A DNA stretch of 47,553 nt from the IMG/VR virus record IMGVR_UViG_2734482568_000006; one strand, 5' to 3'. Source of the DNA: a virus (lineage: Duplodnaviria > Heunggongvirae > Uroviricota > Caudoviricetes). The first letter of the stretch is position 1; every line of letters starts with the position of its first letter. Position numbers and translations under genes: made by a program. Positions 6,842 to 43,676 of this stretch are shown piece after piece. The notes under the pieces are model-generated. The model did not search any database and had not been told where the DNA came from. It saw only the letters and a list, made by a program, of their open reading frames with translations.

Positions 6842-7115
6842 TCGGGGGGAAAAAACATGGGATAAAAACTCCGTTATTCCACTAAACTGGCCGGACTAGG
6901 AAAAGCAAACATCTCTGTCCTGCCGGTACGCCTGTTACGCCGCTCCATGAGGCTGAGGAATCTCCAGAAAACGAGACAGGCACAGCATTGTACGATCAAC
7001 TGATTTGTGCCAATAATTAAATGAAATCACAGCTATGCCTGTTCATGGGGTTCTAGGCCGGAACCCCAGATTTTTCCGATTGTTTGTTTTCTAACTGATT
7101 ATTCAGTAGTTTTAG

Positions 7116-36480: not shown

Positions 36481-36981
36481 TCAGACTTTCGGCAAATCGT
36501 AACGACATAACCATTCATCCGCCGAACGGCGGGCCTCAAGACCGGGGAGTTTTACCCCCTTTGAATAAATCCAGCGGATATACTGCTTACAGGACGCGGG
36601 CATCTGCCCGGCATTGATAAGGCGCAGGAGCGTGGAGTTGCGAAAGTTCGTTTCACCGGCCCAGAAAATCCAGGAGGCCAGCGCCACCGTCTGACCACGG
36701 GTAAGCGGCACCTGAACATGACGATCGATAGCCGCAAAGGCCCATTTCATGTCCTTTTCCAGCAGCTCCAGACACTCTTCATCAGTTTTTGTCATCCCCG
36801 GTTTCACATCCGGGCCGGTATGGCCGTAACAGATGGTGGGGGTGCCGGTGGGATCAATGTACGTGGTGTTTTCTTTCCCTTCCCAGTAGCCGGTGTAGTG
36901 CGTGGCAATGGTGAACGTCCCGGCTCCGGCCAGAACAAGGGCAATCAGCTTTTTACGCAGGGGTGCGGGGAGTTTTGGCAT
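36481..36981 (-). CDS. SAR endolysin (phage lysozyme with N-terminal signal-anchor-release domain)
   Basis: N-terminal weakly hydrophobic segment (LIALVLAGAGTFTIATHY) followed by lysozyme-like core (EGKENTTYIDPTGTPTICYGHTG). Confidence 0.8.
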   Translation of the reverse strand: MPKLPAPLRKKLIALVLAGAGTFTIATHYTGYWEGKENTTYIDPTGTPTICYGHTGPDVKPGMTKTDEECLELLEKDMKWAFAAIDRHVQVPLTRGQTVALASWIFWAGETNFRNSTLLRLINAGQMPASCKQYIRWIYSKGVKLPGLEARRSADEWLCRYDLPKV

Positions 36982-37052
36982 TGTTACGCTGTCTCATGGT
37001 GTTCTCTGAGTCAGCGTAACCGTGAGGAAAAGGGGGCAGGATTTGCGGAATA

Positions 37053-37475
37053 TCAGAAAAGCCGTGGCTGCGTGCGTTCCTGATGCAGGCGACGCTGGTT
37101 GCGGATAACGGAGTAAATCTGCGTCTCTGACATCTGGTAGTGGCGGCGCAGGGTTTCAATTTTTTCGCCCTGGCTCCAGCGGGAAAAAATTTCATTATTG
37201 CGCAGTTCGGTGAAAAGGGATTCACCGACCGGGAGATAATAACCACGCCCGCCCATGTACCCGGCCTGTGCGGCTGCAACCTTACGGGCAAGCATTCCCG
37301 CCTGAGCAGGTTCAATCCCCTGACGGTGCAGTTCAGCACTGATCACATCAACCAGGTCCCGCAGCGTGCCGGGCCAGTTCTTTTTCAGCTCATCATCAGG
37401 AATATCATCCAGACGGTCAATCAGCGCGTGCAGCTGTTCGCTGTCACCAAACATGCTCATCTGTGTTTCAGCCAT
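37053..37475 (-). CDS. Mor/C-family transcriptional activator (C-like by position and length)
   Basis: C-terminal half GGRGYYLPVGESLFTELRNNEIFSRW...YQMSETQIYSVIRNQRR resembles the Mu Mor/C DNA-binding region; 140 aa; preceded by an intrinsic terminator. Confidence 0.7.
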   Translation of the reverse strand: MAETQMSMFGDSEQLHALIDRLDDIPDDELKKNWPGTLRDLVDVISAELHRQGIEPAQAGMLARKVAAAQAGYMGGRGYYLPVGESLFTELRNNEIFSRWSQGEKIETLRRHYQMSETQIYSVIRNQRRLHQERTQPRLF

Positions 37476-37504
37476 ACCCGCCTCCGGTCATCATTACACA
37501 GGGC

Positions 37505-37541
37505 AAGTTTAAAATAAAAATCCCGCGCTGTGGCGGGATTT
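37505..37541 (-). terminator. Rho-independent terminator between the gemA-like and Mor/C-like genes
   Basis: Minus-strand RNA forms aaatcccgc/gcgggattt stem (9 bp) followed by a U-rich run (ttattttaaactt). Confidence 0.5.
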
Positions 37542-37545
37542 GGGG

Positions 37546-38058
37546 TTAACGGGGGAATGATTTTTCATACAGCCTGCAAACACGCTCATAACTCATCACT
37601 GCACGTTCCGACATATCCAGGGCTGCCAGCATTTTGCGGCGGTGCCAGCGTTTGAGACGCTCCAGCACATCAGAGGCCAGCGCGGGTTGTTGCTCCAGCC
37701 ACTGCCAGTTAGCCACACCTTCGCCGTCGTTCTGCGCGGCCGTCTGCGATTTCACCCAGCGGTTAAGGGCCGTTTCCCCGCCATCAGAGATAAATCCCTG
37801 CCGGTGCATCACTTTCCAGATGGCGCGAATTTTGGCGGTCACCGTACCCGGTTTTAAGGCCCGGTTAACCGGCTTCTGACGCACTTTAAAACCGCGTTTT
37901 TTGAAAACATCCAGCACGCGGGATAACTCACCGGGTGACATATCACGGCAACTGGATTTGCCGGTGGCTGCCAGCAGCGCGGATGTATAGGTATCATGGT
38001 CAAGCTGTAGATCGCGTTTTGCGACATGTATTAAGGTAATCAGGGAAGCGCGATTCAT
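37546..38058 (-). CDS. gemA: GemA-like protein (Mu gp16 / DUF1018 family)
   Basis: LITLIHVAKRDLQLDHDTYTSALLAATGKSSCRDMSPGELSRVLDVFKKRGF matches the conserved N-terminal signature of Mu gp16-like proteins. Confidence 0.6.
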   Translation of the reverse strand: MNRASLITLIHVAKRDLQLDHDTYTSALLAATGKSSCRDMSPGELSRVLDVFKKRGFKVRQKPVNRALKPGTVTAKIRAIWKVMHRQGFISDGGETALNRWVKSQTAAQNDGEGVANWQWLEQQPALASDVLERLKRWHRRKMLAALDMSERAVMSYERVCRLYEKSFPR

Positions 38059-38070
38059 TATCGTGGCTCC

Positions 38071-38100
38071 ATAAAAAATGGGCGGTGTTACCGCACCGCC
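38071..38100 (-). terminator. Rho-independent terminator upstream of gemA
   Basis: Minus-strand RNA ggcggtg-cggtaa-caccgcc hairpin followed by cattttttat. Confidence 0.5.
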
Positions 38101-38128
38101 ATGTCAATTAACATAAAAGGAAAAATCT

Positions 38129-38368
38129 ATGTCAGATATAAAAAATGCACTTGATGTTGCCGCATTCACAATGGCTGGAAATCTTATGGTAACCCTGTTC
38201 GATAAGGGGCTGATTTCCCGTGAGGAGGCAATACATATTATCAATCTCGCTCAAAAAAACTCTACCCCGGAAAATGCAGAAGATATCCAGGATGGCTCAT
38301 ATATTAATACCGACTGGCATTTCGACAATCTCCGGGCCTGTATGGGGATTACCGCTGAAAAAGATTAA
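38129..38368 (+). CDS. Hypothetical protein (79 aa) on the strand opposite to the phage early genes
   Basis: ATG with aaaagg RBS; 3-prime end overlaps the convergent minus-strand gene by 20 bp. Confidence 0.45.
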   Translation: MSDIKNALDVAAFTMAGNLMVTLFDKGLISREEAIHIINLAQKNSTPENAEDIQDGSYINTDWHFDNLRACMGITAEKD

Positions 38369-38636
38369 AAATTTTTGCATAATGTTCAGATGTAAGAATT
38401 GCTGAACCATCAACACCGAGCCTACGGCGAACGTATTCCTCGCGGGCTATTTTATTATCCAGAGATACAGCATCCTTAATCAGGTTAATCTCCCGCTCCA
38501 TTATCAAAAGGGCTTCTCTGGCTGCAAGATTTTCTTTTATCGCATATTCGATAATGTCCCGCATACGTTCAAGCATGCCGATTTTAGCCAGTTCTTCGTC
38601 GATAGATTTAGGCGCAAATTTGATTTCTTTTTCCAT
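38349..38636 (-). CDS. Hypothetical helical protein (about 95 aa)
   Basis: Start placed at MEKEIKF, immediately after the stop of the upstream cysteine-rich ORF. Confidence 0.45.
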   Translation of the reverse strand: MEKEIKFAPKSIDEELAKIGMLERMRDIIEYAIKENLAAREALLIMEREINLIKDAVSLDNKIAREEYVRRRLGVDGSAILTSEHYAKIFNLFQR

Positions 38637-38637
38637 A

Positions 38638-38781
38638 TTATTCATCCTCACAATTTATACATGCAGTGTCGTCGCCCATATCGCAGTGGTTACATTTTAT
38701 CTCACCACAATGTGGGCACTCTTTCAGATACTCCGGGTCCTCATTTCCACAGGTGGGACATTCAACAATTTGCTCATCCAT
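38638..38781 (-). CDS. Cysteine-rich zinc-ribbon-like small protein (47 aa), absent from the ORF track
   Basis: MDEQIVECPTCGNEDPEYLKECPHCGEIKCNHCDMGDDTACINCEDE with four CxxC pairs; start overlaps the upstream gene end (ATGGATGA) and the stop abuts the next start. Confidence 0.4.
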   Translation of the reverse strand: MDEQIVECPTCGNEDPEYLKECPHCGEIKCNHCDMGDDTACINCEDE

Positions 38782-39106
38782 TATGTATCCCCTGTAATTC
38801 CGGCAAGGCCGAAAGATGGCACCAGTGCGTCACCTGTCCGTCCTCATCTTCAAGGCAGGCTCCGGTTTCTTCATCAATAAAAAAGCCTTCATACCCCATA
38901 TGGCCGATGCGCAGTTCCTGTTGGTCACCATACTGAACAATCAGCACGACAGCCTCCATATCAGGCGGAAATGCGTCATCCAGTGAATGCCAGGGATAAC
39001 CGCGCAAATCCCCGAAATAAACGCCGGTCAGCGTTCCGCCACAGAGCGGCATTCCGGCGGCACACACAAGAGGTTCATCTGATTCAACAAATAAGGTCGT
39101 TATCAT
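38774..39106 (-). CDS. Hypothetical protein (110 aa)
   Basis: Translationally coupled within the early accessory operon; no recognised domain. Confidence 0.45.
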   Translation of the reverse strand: MITTLFVESDEPLVCAAGMPLCGGTLTGVYFGDLRGYPWHSLDDAFPPDMEAVVLIVQYGDQQELRIGHMGYEGFFIDEETGACLEDEDGQVTHWCHLSALPELQGIHNG

Positions 39107-39654
39107 GGCGTTAACTCCCGTAATACAGCGTCCTCGGCAGTCCGGCGACGGTAATAAACTGCGTGAGCAGAATGTTCAGATATTCCAAACTTTTCGCCAA
39201 TTTCCCGGAATGACAGACGGCGTGGGTAATCGGAATCACGCAGCTCACGTATAAGACGTACATCATCATCAGATATGCGCGTGCCGGGGCGTAACTCTCC
39301 GCACTTTGTTAATCCAGCACCAATCATTCCTGCCCGACATCTGACAGAATCTTTATTACGTCCGAGATATTCTCCCATTTGCTGGCAGGTCATTGTTCTG
39401 GCATTTTTTCGAATAAACTTATCTTCATCAGGTGTAAATCTTGGGTGTTTATATTTCAGTAACTCCGGGTATGAACTGCGCAATACACCAGTCCGGTTAT
39501 ATACAGCCCAGACAGTTCTTTTTATTCTGGCAGCAATATCCTTAACCGGGGTGGATGAATAAAGCGCAATCAGCAGCGCATCTTCTTCAGGTGTCCACGG
39601 ACGGACATGAGCGGGGGCGCGACCTTTTAGTCCCATGGGTTGTAATTTCATCAT
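39103..39654 (-). CDS. Putative DNA-binding regulator with Mor/C-like C-terminal helix-turn-helix
   Basis: C-terminus DDVRLIRELRDSDYPRRLSFREIGEKFGISEHSAHAVYYRRR resembles the Mor/C-type HTH; N-terminal WTPEEDALLIALY motif. Confidence 0.45.
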   Translation of the reverse strand: MMKLQPMGLKGRAPAHVRPWTPEEDALLIALYSSTPVKDIAARIKRTVWAVYNRTGVLRSSYPELLKYKHPRFTPDEDKFIRKNARTMTCQQMGEYLGRNKDSVRCRAGMIGAGLTKCGELRPGTRISDDDVRLIRELRDSDYPRRLSFREIGEKFGISEHSAHAVYYRRRTAEDAVLRELTP

Positions 39655-39657
39655 GCA

Positions 39658-40173
39658 TCACCCCCTGACTCGCTTTTCAGCAGCATAAAACTCATCAGAC
39701 AGTATTTCGGTCATTTTCTGTTTTGCGGGTTTTACGCCGCACTGAAGGTAAATCACATCGTCAACGCAGAACCACTTCACAGGGCCAAACAGGATTGCCG
39801 AGAAATCAATACCCAACCAGAACAACAGCGCATCGGTTCTGGCATACGTGACGGGCGAATATTCACGCCACAGACTGTTCAGTTCATCAGAGGCAACACG
39901 CAGGGTTTTAGGGATACGTGATGTGCGCGGTGTGCAGCTCCAGCCATTCGACGCAGTCGGTTTTCGCCATAAGTCGCGATGAAAAGGATATTTGTCCTCC
40001 GTAAAACGCAGTCCCTTAAAGTAAAATCCACTGATACCGGATACAAATACCGACCGGCACGCAACATTCAGCACGGCCTCAAGGCGTTTTGCCTCATCCT
40101 TAACTTTCTGGCAGTCCTGCTGGTATTTTTGCCACGCAGCCAGCGCGGAAGGGTTTGATGTTTTAAAGAACAT
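39658..40173 (-). CDS. Hypothetical protein (171 aa)
   Basis: Coupled to flanking genes; no recognised domain. Confidence 0.45.
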   Translation of the reverse strand: MFFKTSNPSALAAWQKYQQDCQKVKDEAKRLEAVLNVACRSVFVSGISGFYFKGLRFTEDKYPFHRDLWRKPTASNGWSCTPRTSRIPKTLRVASDELNSLWREYSPVTYARTDALLFWLGIDFSAILFGPVKWFCVDDVIYLQCGVKPAKQKMTEILSDEFYAAEKRVRG

Positions 40174-40706
40174 TACGCCACCTCCGCAGATATCCCGGCA
40201 GGCGCTGCTGTCCGGTCAACAATCAGGTAGCGCAGAACATGTTCAGTGATATTCCAGCCGCTTAAACCGCAGATAATGACGCCCAGGCGTATGTCGATAT
40301 ACGCCATCACAAACTGGGGCACGCCTTCTTTCATGGCCTGCTCATCAACTTCAGCCACCACATAAACGGTTTCACAGGTCAGAACGCCCTGAGCAAATTC
40401 CCACGCCATCGACGGAATATCATGCCCCTCAATCCATGGCAGGGATTTTCTGAAGCCGCACCACTGAACATCATCAGCCGCAGATTCCTGGCTGCATTTG
40501 CGACGAACCGGCTGCACCGGGCGGGGACGCGGAATATCATAAAAACCGTTACATTCCGTCAGCACGCCTGCATCAACCGCATCACGCAGAAAATAAACCA
40601 TGGAGGATGGCGGCATATTCATTTTTTCAGCCAGTACACCGCAGGTCAGGCGGCCATAAATACACAGCCAGTTTTTAACCCCTTCAAGCACTTTTGCATC
40701 AATCAT
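40173..40706 (-). CDS. Hypothetical protein (177 aa), possible N-terminal winged helix
   Basis: First gene after gam; weak HTH-like N-terminus. Confidence 0.45.
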   Translation of the reverse strand: MIDAKVLEGVKNWLCIYGRLTCGVLAEKMNMPPSSMVYFLRDAVDAGVLTECNGFYDIPRPRPVQPVRRKCSQESAADDVQWCGFRKSLPWIEGHDIPSMAWEFAQGVLTCETVYVVAEVDEQAMKEGVPQFVMAYIDIRLGVIICGLSGWNITEHVLRYLIVDRTAAPAGISAEVA

Positions 40707-40851
40707 GATTTATTTCCCCACCACATTATTAATGACGATATAAACGTATTTCATATTTCTTAACCCTTATTTTCTGTTTTCAGGCGCAAGCAGTCCCCTG
40801 ACGCGAGCGCCATAATTAAAATGAAGTGATATTTAATTGATTAATGCGGTG

Positions 40852-41382
40852 TTATTTATTCAGTCCGGCGTCCTGTTCAAAAGGCTCGACATAAAAACTT
40901 TCAGCGCCTTTATTCACCTTGATACCGGCAATGCCTTTCACAGCATCCGGCTCCGCCAGGACGGCTTCCTTGTTCACTTCCTCTTTCGTGCGGATGAAAC
41001 GCTCAAGCCCCATACGGCGCAGCATTTCAATCACACCTTCCACATCACGGCTGACGCTGCATGATGGCGTTCCCAGCCGCCATGACACCGTTCCGGTGGT
41101 CAGATTGGCTGTTTTGGTTTTGCCGCCGTTCGTCAGCTCATCACGGTTGGTTTTGCACCAGTCCTGAATCCCTTTAAAAAGCACTTTGATTTGCTTTTTA
41201 AGATTTTCAATCTGCGGCGTATAACGGGCGGTGATTTCTGCCACTTCGTCATTCATCGCCGTTTCCAGGCGCAGCGCCTCTCGCTGAATATCTCCCAGGG
41301 TGCGGATATCACGGCTGACTTCTTCCCGGGTCTGCGGTGCCGCCTCGGCTGCGGCCTTTAATTTTGTAACGCGTTTAGCCAT
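40852..41382 (-). CDS. gam: Gam host-nuclease inhibitor (Mu Gam / Ku-like DNA end-binding protein)
   Basis: IRTLGDIQREALRLETAMNDEVAEIT...ELTNGGKTKTANLTTGTVSWR...FIRTKEEVNKEA closely parallels Mu Gam. Confidence 0.85.
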   Translation of the reverse strand: MAKRVTKLKAAAEAAPQTREEVSRDIRTLGDIQREALRLETAMNDEVAEITARYTPQIENLKKQIKVLFKGIQDWCKTNRDELTNGGKTKTANLTTGTVSWRLGTPSCSVSRDVEGVIEMLRRMGLERFIRTKEEVNKEAVLAEPDAVKGIAGIKVNKGAESFYVEPFEQDAGLNK

Positions 41383-41393
41383 TTTGTTTTTCC

Positions 41394-41687
41394 TTATTGC
41401 AGTGTGCCTGATGCTTTATGCACGCGGTGGCGTTTAATGATGGCATCCGCTCCAAAAGACTGTGCAGATGCCTGAAATTCCGCTGAGAGAAACTGAATAA
41501 TTGCAGGACTGTGATACTGGAGAATACTTGCATAAACGTCACAGAGTGACGTCGGCCTGTTATCCGTATCACGTTCTGTTTTCACATCCACTCCAATCTT
41601 TTCATGCACTTCAACACAGTCATTGCCTGCCAACTTTTCGTCATGCGAAACATGATTAAATTCAAAAATAACGCGTACTTTGCTCAT
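41394..41687 (-). CDS. Hypothetical small protein, paralog 1 (about 97 aa)
   Basis: Starts MSKVRVIFEFNHV, paralleling the adjacent gene N-terminus MSKVVRIIFEYKEDV. Confidence 0.45.
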   Translation of the reverse strand: MSKVRVIFEFNHVSHDEKLAGNDCVEVHEKIGVDVKTERDTDNRPTSLCDVYASILQYHSPAIIQFLSAEFQASAQSFGADAIIKRHRVHKASGTLQ

Positions 41688-41691
41688 GGAA

Positions 41692-41964
41692 TTACCCCTG
41701 TTGATTAAATTCATTACCGTTAATAACCCCGGAAGCCATGCCTCTGTCTTTCATGAATGCACTGGCTTTCATTGCCACAAACTCTGCGAAGTTTCTGCTT
41801 TCTGCCAGCATAACCACCCCAAAAATCATGGCGGGTCCATTATCTTTCTTCTTTATTCCGGTTGAACGTATATCCAGACTTACCCCTCTGTGCGTGCTGC
41901 CATCAGAGTTTTTGCAGATAACATCTTCCTTGTATTCGAAAATAATGCGTACGACTTTACTCAT
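41692..41964 (-). CDS. Hypothetical small protein, paralog 2 (90 aa)
   Basis: Shares N-terminal motif with 41394-41687; tandem arrangement. Confidence 0.45.
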   Translation of the reverse strand: MSKVVRIIFEYKEDVICKNSDGSTHRGVSLDIRSTGIKKKDNGPAMIFGVVMLAESRNFAEFVAMKASAFMKDRGMASGVINGNEFNQQG

Positions 41965-42242
41965 CCTCTGGTCCTCGTTCTGTTTGGATAACTGACCCGG
42001 CGTCTAACCTCACGGCAGAACCGAATCATGGCATTAAAGGCTTCTTCCTCCGTCACCGCTTCCGGTATCCCCGGAACCAGTAACTGCTCCTGTTCATCAC
42101 GTCCATGACGCGCCATAACCTCAATCACATGCCGTACCGTGGCAGGCTTTCCGGCAACTATCGGCAATGCACCTTCCGGCAGGACGTAACCAAACTCAAT
42201 AAGACCACTCGACCACGCCCATGCAATGAGATTTTTTTTCAC
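41961..42242 (-). CDS. Hypothetical early protein (93 aa)
   Basis: Position in the semi-essential early region; coupled starts and stops. Confidence 0.4.
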   Translation of the reverse strand: MKKNLIAWAWSSGLIEFGYVLPEGALPIVAGKPATVRHVIEVMARHGRDEQEQLLVPGIPEAVTEEEAFNAMIRFCREVRRRVSYPNRTRTRG

Positions 42243-42243
42243 C

Positions 42244-42510
42244 TCACACCTCCCAGTAAACCGTGCAGCCGCTGATGCGGGTGGCCTTCACACGGCGGCG
42301 CAGGCCGTTGGTCTGTATGGTGATTTCAATTTCACCGGTTCCCTGCACGTTGCCTACCGGCGGCGTGGTTTTCAGTGCAAAACGTTGCGGATAGCGCTTA
42401 CTGCGTTCCAGTACCGCACCGGCAAGTTCGGTCAGACGGCGCGCGCTGTTCAGGGAGTCGAATAAATTCATTTTGTTACCGCAGGATTGCATATTCATAT
42501 AACACCTCAT
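42244..42510 (-). CDS. Hypothetical early protein (88 aa)
   Basis: Position only. Confidence 0.4.
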   Translation of the reverse strand: MRCYMNMQSCGNKMNLFDSLNSARRLTELAGAVLERSKRYPQRFALKTTPPVGNVQGTGEIEITIQTNGLRRRVKATRISGCTVYWEV

Positions 42511-42738
42511 TTAGCTGACTTGTTTCGCACCAACAGAACGGCATATTCCGCTGTAAACTTCTGTCGCACCTTCGCGATCAAGTCCGGCAGATATCACCAT
42601 TCGTGTGCGGTCATTAAATTCAAAAAGTAAATCGCCACATTCTTTATTTTCGGCCAGTGAAATCACCTTCACGTTATCGAAATTAACCAGGTAAAAGCGT
42701 CCGTAAATATCAGGAATATTAAATACCGCCATAATCAC
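42511..42738 (-). CDS. Hypothetical early protein (75 aa), at the position of Mu kil
   Basis: Immediately downstream of B, coupled (overlapping stop/start). Confidence 0.4.
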   Translation of the reverse strand: MIMAVFNIPDIYGRFYLVNFDNVKVISLAENKECGDLLFEFNDRTRMVISAGLDREGATEVYSGICRSVGAKQVS

Positions 42739-43676
42739 ACCTGTGAGAGTAATTCAGGGTTGGTATAAACCTCTTTAAAGGCCGCATTAATATGTTTTTC
42801 TGTCAGCGCCGCGCCTTCACCGCTGGCGGTGAGCCACGCCTGGTTAAGCGTATGTGTCAGAACGCGTAACGCTCCCGGCTTTTCAGCGATAGCCTGCATG
42901 ACGGCCAGCTCGGCCTCACCACTGATCCCCCACGCCATGGCAATGGCCAGCACATCCGCCTTTTTGGCCTTGCGAAGTTGTTTTGTACGGGCAAGACGGC
43001 TGAACAGGCGCGATAAATCATCAAAGGCGCGGCGTCCACCTTTAAACAATCCGCGCGGGTTACCAATAAGCACCATCCCGATCCCCGTGGCGTCCTGAAT
43101 TGCCCGGAGTTGCTCCAGACCGTCAATACCAAGATGATCCGCCTCATCCACAATCACCAGTCCACGCGTTCCCATCAGGCGACGGCGGATGGCGCGGGAT
43201 AATGCCCCTTTGTTCGCGCGGGTGTAATCAATCCCCAGCGCATCGGCCAGCTCCAGCAGACACTCCGTGACGCTGGAGTGCGCGGGTGACAGGGTGATCA
43301 TCCAGGTGTTTGGTTGCTCCTGGCAGTAATTACGGGCAGTGGCCGTTTTACCCACACCCGGTACGCCCACAATAACGTTAATACAGCCCATCAGGCGAAC
43401 CGCCTGAAACAGTGCGCGCAGCTCCTGGACTGTCTGAGTTTCCACAAACTGCGGCGGTTCCGGCAGTGCGCTTTGTTTATTCCAGTTCTCATACCAGGAG
43501 CGCAGGGAAGCAGCCACAGCAGCGTTATCGCCTTTATATTTTCCCTTACGGAAAGCCGATAATGTGCCGTCGGAAATTCCCGCCTCTCTGGCGATGGCAT
43601 ACTGCGTCAGTACGCCGCCATCAATAAGTTCATCAATGGTCTTGATTACATCGTTAATATCGGTCATATTATTCAC
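42735..43676 (-). CDS. B: Transposition ATPase B (MuB-like AAA+ target-DNA activator)
   Basis: ALPEPPQFVETQTV ... GVPGVGKT ... WMITLSP ... LSRAIRRRL ... VIVDEADHLG parallels Mu B throughout. Confidence 0.85.
   Translation of the reverse strand: MNNMTDINDVIKTIDELIDGGVLTQYAIAREAGISDGTLSAFRKGKYKGDNAAVAASLRSWYENWNKQSALPEPPQFVETQTVQELRALFQAVRLMGCINVIVGVPGVGKTATARNYCQEQPNTWMITLSPAHSSVTECLLELADALGIDYTRANKGALSRAIRRRLMGTRGLVIVDEADHLGIDGLEQLRAIQDATGIGMVLIGNPRGLFKGGRRAFDDLSRLFSRLARTKQLRKAKKADVLAIAMAWGISGEAELAVMQAIAEKPGALRVLTHTLNQAWLTASGEGAALTEKHINAAFKEVYTNPELLSQV

Follow-up and report, generated by a model that had tools for sequence, protein, structure and literature searches.

A gam-proximal early gene block in a Mu-like Escherichia coli prophage: counterparts of Mu gp11 and gp12 and two additional genes

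Introduction

What is encoded, and to what end, in the stretch that separates gam from gemA in a Mu-like prophage? The question is raised by a block of four open reading frames (ORFs) of 177, 171, 183 and 110 amino acids (aa), which occupies, according to the ORF list, the minus strand from 40706 to 38774 of a 47,553-nucleotide piece of phage DNA—the entire piece, as it was analysed, being referred to here as the window. [quoted passage not shown] A preliminary description had regarded the four genes as a translationally coupled early accessory operon downstream of gam, devoid of a confident family assignment except for possible helix-turn-helix (HTH) segments, and situated where host-modulating and anti-defence functions tend to reside. 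Its statement on the function still stands, in that none has been experimentally established for any of the four, the semi-essential genes of Mu having been called "largely uncharacterized" (PMC3820752).

Results and discussion

Identity of the prophage and position of the block

The window is identical (100%) to a Mu-like prophage of the E. coli strain 600029, and the lineage to which it belongs is carried by 232 of the 5426 complete E. coli genomes, i.e. by approximately 4%, with many STEC among the carriers. On the minus strand, the genes follow in the order transposase (with the Mu transposase C-terminal domain), AAA ATPase (MuB-like), small genes, gam, the block, gemA, Mor/C gene and lysozyme. 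With the transposition genes A/B, together with kil and gam, on one side of it and gemA/mor on the other, and on the early-transcript strand, the block has the position of the SEE region in Muvirus and belongs to the ordinary SEE region of a transposable E. coli prophage of the Mu type; the earlier assignment to the early region of such a prophage is borne out by both the gene order and the identity with strain 600029. The gene gam itself (40852..41382, minus strand), encoding the host-nuclease inhibitor of the Mu Gam family, was recognized by the Pfam family PF07352 Phage_Mu_Gam (E 5.5e-42), its product exhibiting 57% identity to Mu Gam, and its end at 40852 is found 145 nt upstream of the first gene of the block.

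Two of the four genes are the counterparts of Mu gp11 and gp12, the other two having no equivalent at that place in Mu. The packed run extends beyond 38774 with homologues of gp13 (47 aa) and gp14 (95 aa), the stretch from gam to gemA thus comprising six co-oriented genes—those for the gp11 and gp12 homologues, a triple-HTH protein, a mosaic protein and the gp13 and gp14 homologues. The order from gp11 to gp14 is the same as in Mu, with the two extra genes placed here between gp12 and gp13. Both of them are missing from Mu, D108 and SfMu and are therefore dispensable for the Mu life style, and both are kept in all 232 E. coli genomes of the lineage. Judging by their sequences, all four ORFs are real genes rather than chance ORFs: each is annotated by RefSeq in the 100%-identical genome, their PHROG E-values amount, respectively, to 4e-105, 1e-84, 5e-53 and 2e-51, and purifying selection acts on all the genes of the block (pairwise dN/dS against related prophages of 0.08–0.37 for the four and of 0.01–0.37 over the block). 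NCBIfam gave no usable matches. The gene identities are secure, the biochemical roles discussed below being inferred; the outcome is mainly a better annotation of a common E. coli Mu-like prophage, in which the Mu gp11–gp14 set is accompanied by two extra early genes.

Junctions and transcription signals

The dense packing of four genes directly downstream of gam, as previously described, agrees with the coordinates and with the junctions: the 177-aa and 171-aa genes overlap by 1 nt of stop and start (TAATG), a gap of 3 nt separates the 171-aa and 183-aa genes, the 183-aa and 110-aa genes share 4 nt (ATGA), the 110-aa gene overlaps that of the gp13 homologue by 8 nt, and the gp14 homologue starts 1 nt past the stop of the latter. 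Every start is preceded by its own Shine-Dalgarno sequence of the GGAG/GGGG type located inside the preceding gene, so that the packing does not by itself imply that a gene relies on translation of the one before it.

Concerning transcription, promoter-like and terminator-like matches in the region 36900–41500 are not more frequent than in the shuffled sequence, and zero structured RNA families were found by Rfam across the whole window. The first terminator-like hairpin on the strand, a GC hairpin followed by a T run (38100..38081, minus strand), is found past the gene of the gp14 homologue and before gemA; it is a candidate from a pattern scan, the count of such sites in the region not exceeding the shuffle expectation. 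The block is probably a segment of a long early transcription unit and not demonstrably a separate operon. From the idea of a four-gene operon, it is consequently the packing that holds, but neither the limits of the block—the genes of the gp13 and gp14 homologues following—nor its standing as a separate unit.

The counterparts of Mu gp11 and gp12

The 177-aa protein (40173..40706, minus strand) is an orthologue of Mu gp11 (Mup11, formerly E10–E12), with which it is collinear over the full length (68% identity over 177 aa), both genes being the first after gam. The family Gp11_C (PF25754) covers it with 139.2 bits (cut-off 27) along the full 78-position profile, and three parts can be discerned in the protein: a winged-helix-like segment (approximately aa 1–55), a variable disordered linker (56–86) and a C-terminal beta domain corresponding to Gp11_C (90–167). 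The linker differs from that of Mu gp11 within aa 62–80. The N-terminus is predicted to be a winged-helix domain, the matches of the predicted model to solved structures being generic winged helices only.

The 171-aa protein (39658..40173, minus strand), consisting of a single domain, is an orthologue of Mu gp12 (Mup12, formerly E13), as documented by 55% identity over 169 aa, a full-length match to phrog_2314 (E 1.2e-84), and a length class and a place after gp11 that are those of the Mu protein; even the 1-nt overlap between gp11 and gp12 is repeated in Mu, where both meet at 6954. In Mu, gp12 directly overlaps gp13, whereas two genes are inserted between them in the window. All the gp12 homologues found carry a precomputed match to PF26885 Phage_Mu_Gp12, this match having been scored for the homologues. 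The view that neither protein has a confident family is thus no longer tenable for gp11, owing to PF25754, and for gp12, owing to its 55% identity to the Mu protein, the 183-aa and 110-aa proteins being extra with regard to Mu. No fold match to any solved protein was found for the gp12 model, built from a shallow alignment. A word-indexed search had left gp12 as an enterobacterial orphan, but this was overturned by an exhaustive search, which revealed 180 clusters at 50% identity, including those from Pantoea, Citrobacter and metagenomic phages. One family member is located in a virulent-type phage contig among genes of nucleotide metabolism without gp11 as a neighbour, the partnership of gp11 and gp12 being therefore not obligatory.

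The gp12 family is probably distantly related to DUF5420 (PF17457)/phrog_2260, as suggested by an end-to-end profile–profile match (hhalign probability 71%) and by the motifs in common—the N-terminal YFK and the C-terminal I..SEF.A. In several relatives, an extra gene of the DUF5420/phrog_2260 type is positioned between gam and gp11, a slot from which it is absent in both Mu and the window; such proteins fill the slot in SfMu and STEC Mu-like prophages with a gene of 180–192 aa, the window having just a 14-codon remnant, MKYVYIVINNVVGK (40710..40754, minus strand). The start of this ORF resembles the MK.AYFKL N-termini, and the slot retains, in addition to it, the conserved upstream region and the ribosome-binding region of gp11. 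The ORF is probably what a deletion has left, as a scar, of a gene of the phrog_2260/DUF5420 type.

The two additional genes

The 183-aa protein (39103..39654, minus strand), assigned to phrog_323 with the label "transcriptional regulator" (E 5e-53), possesses three tandem repeats (approximately aa 14–62, 68–117 and 122–172), which are similar to each other and putatively HTH repeats of the Myb/SANT/homeodomain-like kind. All its Pfam matches are below the threshold—Myb_DNA-binding with 19.7 bits (cut-off 24.4), HTH_AsnC with 18.8 (27) and HTH_10 with 18.7 (23.1)—and the PDB offered a weak homeodomain match (E 0.036), the name in RefSeq being "SANT/Myb-like DNA-binding domain-containing protein". 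The HTH segments suspected originally are thus recovered as the predicted winged helix of the 177-aa N-terminus and the three repeats present here. The phrog_323 family is shared with Mu gp9 (E8, "transcriptional regulator, D5-like"), which aligns with the second and third repeats at 27–31% identity; it should be pointed out that Mu gp9 has two repeats in 99 aa and is encoded upstream of gam, whereas the protein with three repeats is encoded between gp12 and gp13. To our knowledge, neither of them has been experimentally characterized.

In E. coli, the 183-aa gene exists as two alleles on a background otherwise 91–98% identical. Since the divergent allele exhibits a dN/dS of 0.26–0.29 together with a raised dS (0.59–0.66), positive selection is ruled out and a replacement of the allele by recombination under purifying selection is indicated. 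A P2-like phage, too, has a homologue of the triple-HTH gene in its early operon.

The 110-aa protein (38774..39106, minus strand; phrog_6925, E 2e-51) is a mosaic of a conserved 37-aa N-terminal module and an exchangeable C-terminal domain. The proteins P0181 and P0182, encoded upstream of GemA in the equivalent region of Mu-like prophages, have the N-terminus in common with it and carry other C-terminal domains, P0182 being found directly after a 182-aa gene resembling the 183-aa one. The match to DUF551 (PF04448) reached 14.6 bits (cut-off 22), spanning the profile positions 2–67 of 68; the comparison with YfdS (DUF551) gave an hhalign probability of 7% and a BLASTP match confined to the ..vTHW..P.PE tail, the C-terminus therefore being, from its sequence, weakly DUF551-like. 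A common DUF551-like fold for the C-terminal domain of gp11 and the 110-aa protein was considered and rejected (hhalign probability 0.1%).

With regard to its design, the protein is reminiscent of Ea22 from lambda/Stx phages, in which a constant N-terminus is combined with portable C-terminal domains, one of them being DUF551. Ea22 is encoded by an early, non-essential gene (PMC10834534), as would be the 110-aa protein. The latter is, however, much smaller and bears no sequence similarity to the N-terminus or the coiled coil of Ea22, nor can the pro-lysogenic role of the latter be extended to it.

Of the quartet originally described as accessory, gp11 and gp12 are conserved Muvirus genes and not variable cargo, and only the 183-aa and 110-aa genes come in addition to the Mu set. 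Taken together, the four proteins do not reduce to core early proteins with a known housekeeping function.

Possible roles of the block

The best explanation, held with a probability of roughly 0.55, is that the block provides dispensable early factors of DNA transactions and host interaction within a semi-essential region of the Mu type. By analogy with Mu, induction would lead from the early promoter Pe to a long ner-A-B-...-gemA message including the block, the proteins of which would be translated in series and emerge jointly during the first minutes of the lytic cycle. The gp11 orthologue might bind DNA with the winged helix predicted at its N-terminus, and the 183-aa protein might do so with its three Myb/homeodomain-like repeats; a partnership of gp12 with gp11 is probable, because their genes are invariably neighbours in Muvirus and have an identical 1-nt overlap in Mu, and the 110-aa protein may act in an adaptor-like manner, its constant N-terminus carrying the exchangeable C-terminal domain. 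Their joint role would be that of dispensable early factors tuning host and phage DNA transactions towards transposition–replication, the block proteins being, on this view, neither enzymes nor structural components. The winged helix of gp11, the triple Myb-like HTH and the alleles of the 183-aa protein, the spread of the gp12 family with its probable link to DUF5420, and the interchangeable C-terminal domain of the 110-aa protein offer starting points for work on the semi-essential genes of transposable phages.

To speak of "DNA transactions" is to claim a broad role, one hard to tell from the rather unlikely alternative that the block, or at least its 183-aa and 110-aa genes, represents a counter-defence module made early against host systems. 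The early genes adjoin that of a host-nuclease inhibitor, gam, and the gam–gp11 slot is variable, being empty or occupied by DUF5420/phrog_2260 in relatives; gp11 and gp12 themselves are, however, conserved rather than variable, and their models match solved structures only as generic winged helices. The triple-HTH gene is followed in OkiPb01696 by extra genes of 61 aa and 75 aa, its family is mobile between Mu-like and P2-like phages, and the C-terminal domain of the neighbouring 110-aa protein can be exchanged, all of which would suit such a module, as would the two divergent alleles on their nearly uniform background; yet this divergence reflects recombinational replacement under purifying selection and not an arms-race diversification, and HTH repeat proteins are more typically regulators. 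The preliminary description had derived its anti-defence and host-modulation reading from position alone, and that reading was not substantiated by the searches: PADLOC yielded no match at E ≤ 0.1 for seven block proteins, the sequence and profile searches of PDB were negative or insignificant for all four proteins, and similarity to characterized anti-defence proteins with solved structures was not found, the 183-aa and 110-aa proteins having been compared by sequence only. Likewise, nothing relevant was found in the literature on the functions of Mu gp11/gp12, on anti-defence in Mu-like early regions or on DUF5420. Should one of the block genes prove to encode a counter-defence factor, this would be useful and unsurprising.

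Quite improbable, as a more specific proposal, is that the triple-HTH and mosaic genes constitute a portable early cassette of Mu-like phages, in which a DNA binder would position or regulate a polymorphic effector directed at a defence, nucleoid or replication target, with gp12/DUF5420 forming a widespread, hitherto unrecognized class of early host-interaction proteins.

Still more doubtful is a regulation of phage transcription by the DNA-binding proteins of the block, for example by the 183-aa protein replacing the missing Mor and activating the single Mor/C gene. Both the present lineage and the prophage L008 have one Mor/C gene (between gemA and lysozyme) along with the triple-HTH gene, whereas Mu and SfMu have mor—Mu also C—without the latter, but the correlation comes from a handful of loci in two lineages and may be due to phylogeny. 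A terminator-like hairpin located between gemA and the Mor/C gene and the "transcriptional regulator" label of phrog_323 speak for this role; candidate binding sites were not identified, and the family also has a member among the early-operon genes of a P2-like phage, which employs a different late-gene switch. The gp11 orthologue is excluded from this role, since Mu has both gp11 and Mor.

That the block benefits the lysogen—by superinfection exclusion, phage defence or stress tolerance—through low early transcription is extremely unlikely, despite the low-level Pe/Pe* transcription over semi-essential genes in uninduced Mu lysogens, for which a host benefit has been suggested (PMC3820752), and the link of the DUF551-containing prophage protein YfdS to peroxide tolerance (PMC10834534, PMC4776307), since the PADLOC defence models are unmatched by the block proteins, the genes are on the lytic strand, within the lytic operon that the repressor controls, and the DUF551 membership of the 110-aa protein is below the threshold.

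Elements flanking the four genes

Immediately after gam, a conserved non-coding element (40783..40851, minus strand) is found, consisting of an AT-rich box and a hairpin GGCGC..GCGCC (40811..40783) without a U tail. It is near-invariant in Mu, SfMu and the present lineage, the flanking proteins being just 57–68% identical, and all 10 of the 10 predicted pairs are retained, with zero covariation.

On the opposite side of the block, the gp13 homologue of 47 aa (38638..38781, minus strand), 88% identical to Mu gp13 (phrog_5584, E 3e-26), is zinc-ribbon-like with four CxxC pairs, the zinc-ribbon matches in Pfam remaining below the threshold; the RefSeq table shows no CDS there. The last gene of the block, encoding the gp14 homologue of 95 aa (38349..38636, minus strand; 49% identity to Mu gp14; phrog_6075, E 6e-44), starts in RefSeq with the ATG at 38636.

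Layout and extent of the block

The window contains a transposable prophage of Mu type, the early region of which is encoded on the minus strand, and the feature, the semi-essential early genes distal to gam, is an ordinary one of a Mu-like prophage common in E. coli. Four ORFs of 177 (40706..40173), 171 (40173..39658), 183 (39654..39103) and 110 aa (39106..38774) are located downstream of the gene for Gam (41382..40852; Pfam Phage_Mu_Gam, E 5.5e-42) and upstream of those for GemA (38058..37546), a Mor/C-family activator (37475..37053)—all on the minus strand—and lysozyme. The ORF list agrees exactly with the four genes of the preliminary description, and RefSeq annotates the same four CDS in the prophage of E. 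coli strain 600029, which is 100% identical to the region; prophages at least 90% identical are present in 232 of 5426 complete E. coli genomes.

The genes are joined by a 1-nt overlap (177/171; TAATG), a 3-nt gap (171/183) and an ATGA overlap (183/110), with a GGAG/GGGG-type Shine-Dalgarno sequence at each of the four starts. This packing extends past 38774, the end of the block as originally delimited: a 47-aa ORF homologous to Mu gp13 (38781..38638, minus strand) overlaps the 110-aa gene by 8 nt, and a 95-aa homologue of Mu gp14 (38636..38349, minus strand; 49% identity) starts 1 nt past its stop. The first terminator-like hairpin on the minus strand is found only at 38100..38081, just ahead of gemA, and promoter-like and terminator-like matches across 36900-41500 show no excess over shuffled sequence. 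In Mu, a single long early transcript from Pe, running from ner to C, spans the "semi-essential" genes, the functions of which are "largely uncharacterized" (PMC3820752; PMC4553209). Since the packing runs on, the signals are not in excess and the Mu transcript covers ner to C, the four genes are best regarded as a segment of a long early unit; the tight packing described earlier stands, and a separate operon is not demonstrable.

Orthologues of Mu gp11 and gp12

The absence of any confident family assignment, claimed previously for all four proteins, does not apply to the first two. The 177-aa protein is, by sequence comparison, the orthologue of Mu gp11 (68% identity over the full length; Pfam Gp11_C, 139 bits with a cut-off of 27; phrog_1949, E 4e-105), its homologues occurring only in Mu, D108, SfMu, Yersinia Mu-like phages and enterobacterial prophages. 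Their alignment exhibits 60 highly conserved N-terminal residues, a variable linker and a conserved C-terminal domain. Read together with an AlphaFold model whose quality is modest (pLDDT 62.9 for the whole chain and 78-90 for the C-terminal beta domain), the protein probably combines a winged-helix nucleic-acid-binding domain with a Muvirus-specific beta domain.

The 171-aa protein is likewise the orthologue of Mu gp12 (55% identity; phrog_2314, E 1e-84), PF26885 (Phage_Mu_Gp12) being precomputed on its homologues. A word-indexed search pictured gp12 as a narrow E. coli/Salmonella family; this was overturned by an exhaustive profile search, which yielded 180 representative clusters, all of them single-domain proteins of about 165-190 aa, with members also in Pantoea and Citrobacter. 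One member is encoded by a 50-kb virulent-type phage contig, surrounded by genes for a helicase, a DHH phosphoesterase, a nucleotide kinase, ribonucleotide reductase and PhoH, with no gp11-like neighbour beside it. A 101-sequence gp12 profile found no match in the local Pfam copy or the PDB. Profile comparison with DUF5420/phrog_2260 gave a probability of 71% (E 3.6e-5, 147 columns). With YFK near the N-terminus and I..SEF.A near the C-terminus as common motifs, the two families are likely to be distant paralogues.

Lineage-specific additions

The 183-aa and 110-aa genes are lineage-specific additions made of recognisable parts; Mu has no counterpart of the former at the corresponding position and lacks the latter, too. 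The 183-aa protein is built of three units that resemble one another (about aa 14-62, 68-117 and 122-172), with Myb, AsnC-type and HTH_10 matches, all sub-threshold, and a weak homeodomain match in the PDB. It belongs to phrog_323 ("transcriptional regulator, D5-like"; E 5e-53), as does Mu gp9, which has two repeats and 27-31% identity to it. A homologue of its gene is present in all 232 E. coli genomes with the prophage lineage, in two allele classes—that of the window in 31 records (at least 80% nucleotide identity) and the other in 202 (77-79%). The encoded proteins are only 71-72% identical, compared with 91-98% for the flanking genes, and dS amounts to 0.59-0.66 against 0.17-0.27 in the neighbouring genes, with dN/dS of 0.26-0.29. 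The raised dS together with this ratio indicates an old allele, acquired by recombination and retained under purifying selection; the same values rule out rapid adaptive change. Inspected by eye, the allele differences concentrate in the second half of each repeat, the expected place of a recognition helix. A P2-like Citrobacter phage has a full-length homologue (37% identity) in its early operon, adjoining an ead/Ea22-like gene; the 183-aa gene is portable among temperate phages.

The 110-aa protein (phrog_6925, E 2e-51) has a 37-residue N-terminus that is almost invariant across its homologues. Two of these from other Mu-like prophages, P0181 and P0182, both positioned in the corresponding part upstream of GemA, have the common N-terminus followed by unrelated C-terminal domains; P0182 directly follows a 182-aa gene resembling the 183-aa one, and the contig of P0181 stops just upstream. 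Many PHROG families, differing widely in length, also end in the C-terminal domain seen in P0181. The C-terminal domain of the 110-aa protein covers nearly the whole DUF551 profile at 14.6 bits (threshold 22), and comparing profiles with YfdS, a DUF551 protein, gave an unconvincing result (probability 7%). The same design has been described for lambda/Stx Ea22, in which portable C-terminal domains, including DUF551, are attached to an N-terminal part that stays constant (PMC10834534).

Variable slots and a conserved element

Two slots vary among the relatives. The gam|gp11 slot is empty in Mu and the window; in SfMu and STEC prophages a DUF5420 protein occupies it, and the related prophage of strain DETEC-S792 has a different phrog_2260 protein there. 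A 14-codon ORF (MKYVYIVINNVVGK; 40754..40710, minus strand), ending 3 nt ahead of the gp11 start codon, is probably what a deletion left of a phrog_2260/DUF5420 gene. The gp12|gp13 slot is empty in Mu, and contains the 183-aa and 110-aa genes in the window, with two small genes in addition in OkiPb01696. In the related prophage L008, a DUF3164 protein (2114-2752, Logan assembly) takes the Gam position, followed downstream by a phrog_2260 gene, gp11 and gp12.

Directly after gam, a non-coding element (40783-40851, minus strand) is near-invariant in Mu, SfMu and the window's lineage, the flanking proteins being just 57-68% identical. It comprises an AT-rich box (..TTTTAATTAT) and a hairpin GGCGC..GTCAGGGGAC..GCGCC, with no U tail, covariation or Rfam family match, and may serve for protein binding or as a signal at which RNA is processed or transcription pauses.

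Putative role

Nothing in the block is categorically new and the roles are putative; the modest new points are the probable gp11 winged helix, the breadth of the gp12 family with its probable DUF5420 link, the two triple-HTH alleles and, in the 110-aa gene, a mosaic design like that of Ea22. What the analysis shows directly is which genes these are, how they are packed and that they are conserved under purifying selection. The favoured reading, with a probability of roughly 0.55, is that of non-essential early DNA-binding or host-interaction factors tuning the lytic transposition-replication programme; within it, the gene identities are highly probable and the mechanism is tentative. By analogy with Mu, the genes would be co-transcribed from Pe right after induction and would be dispensable. 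The domain content suggests that gp11 and the triple-HTH protein may bind DNA, and that the 110-aa protein would be a constant module bearing an exchangeable domain. Within Muvirus, gp12 would be a likely partner of gp11, as the two are always adjacent, with the same 1-nt overlap in Mu; the partnership would not be obligatory, since gp12 relatives are found alone.

An anti-defence function, among those suggested originally, is unlikely: position and variability argue for it, but the block proteins match no PADLOC model and resemble no solved inhibitor in sequence, nor do the gp11 and gp12 models in fold. It is still less probable that a block protein acts in the phage's own transcription cascade: lineages with the triple-HTH protein have a single Mor/C gene, but the P2-like homologue weakens the idea. 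A benefit to the lysogen, conceivable solely via the basal level of early transcripts that has been reported in Mu, is very improbable.

Surrounding early region

The Mor/C-family gene (37053-37475, minus strand), with 40% identity to Mu C and 28% identity to Mor, is the sole one in the lineage and is flanked immediately by gemA and the lysozyme gene; a separate mor gene and the gp18-20 middle operon are absent from the window's lineage. Terminator-like hairpins occur at both sides of gemA (37518-37541 and 38081-38100, minus strand). The gp13 homologue (38638-38781, minus strand), zinc-ribbon-like with four CxxC pairs, is the region's most conserved protein (88% identity to Mu), yet goes unannotated by RefSeq in the identical genome. 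In the position of Mu gp15, a 79-aa gene (38129-38368; phrog_32893, E 1e-45) is encoded on the opposite, plus strand, sharing 20 nt with the 3' end of the gp14 homologue; in its updated annotation (AF083977), Mu has in that interval a same-strand ORF, Mu_54, and no gp15. Just upstream of gam (41394-41964, minus strand), small genes of 106 and 90 aa likewise represent divergent alleles, with 59-60% and 82% protein identity to STEC prophages, compared with 96-99% for gam. Finally, the G+C content of the early accessory region (38001-43000; 0.44-0.52) is lower than that of the late structural region (16001-37000; 0.53-0.62).
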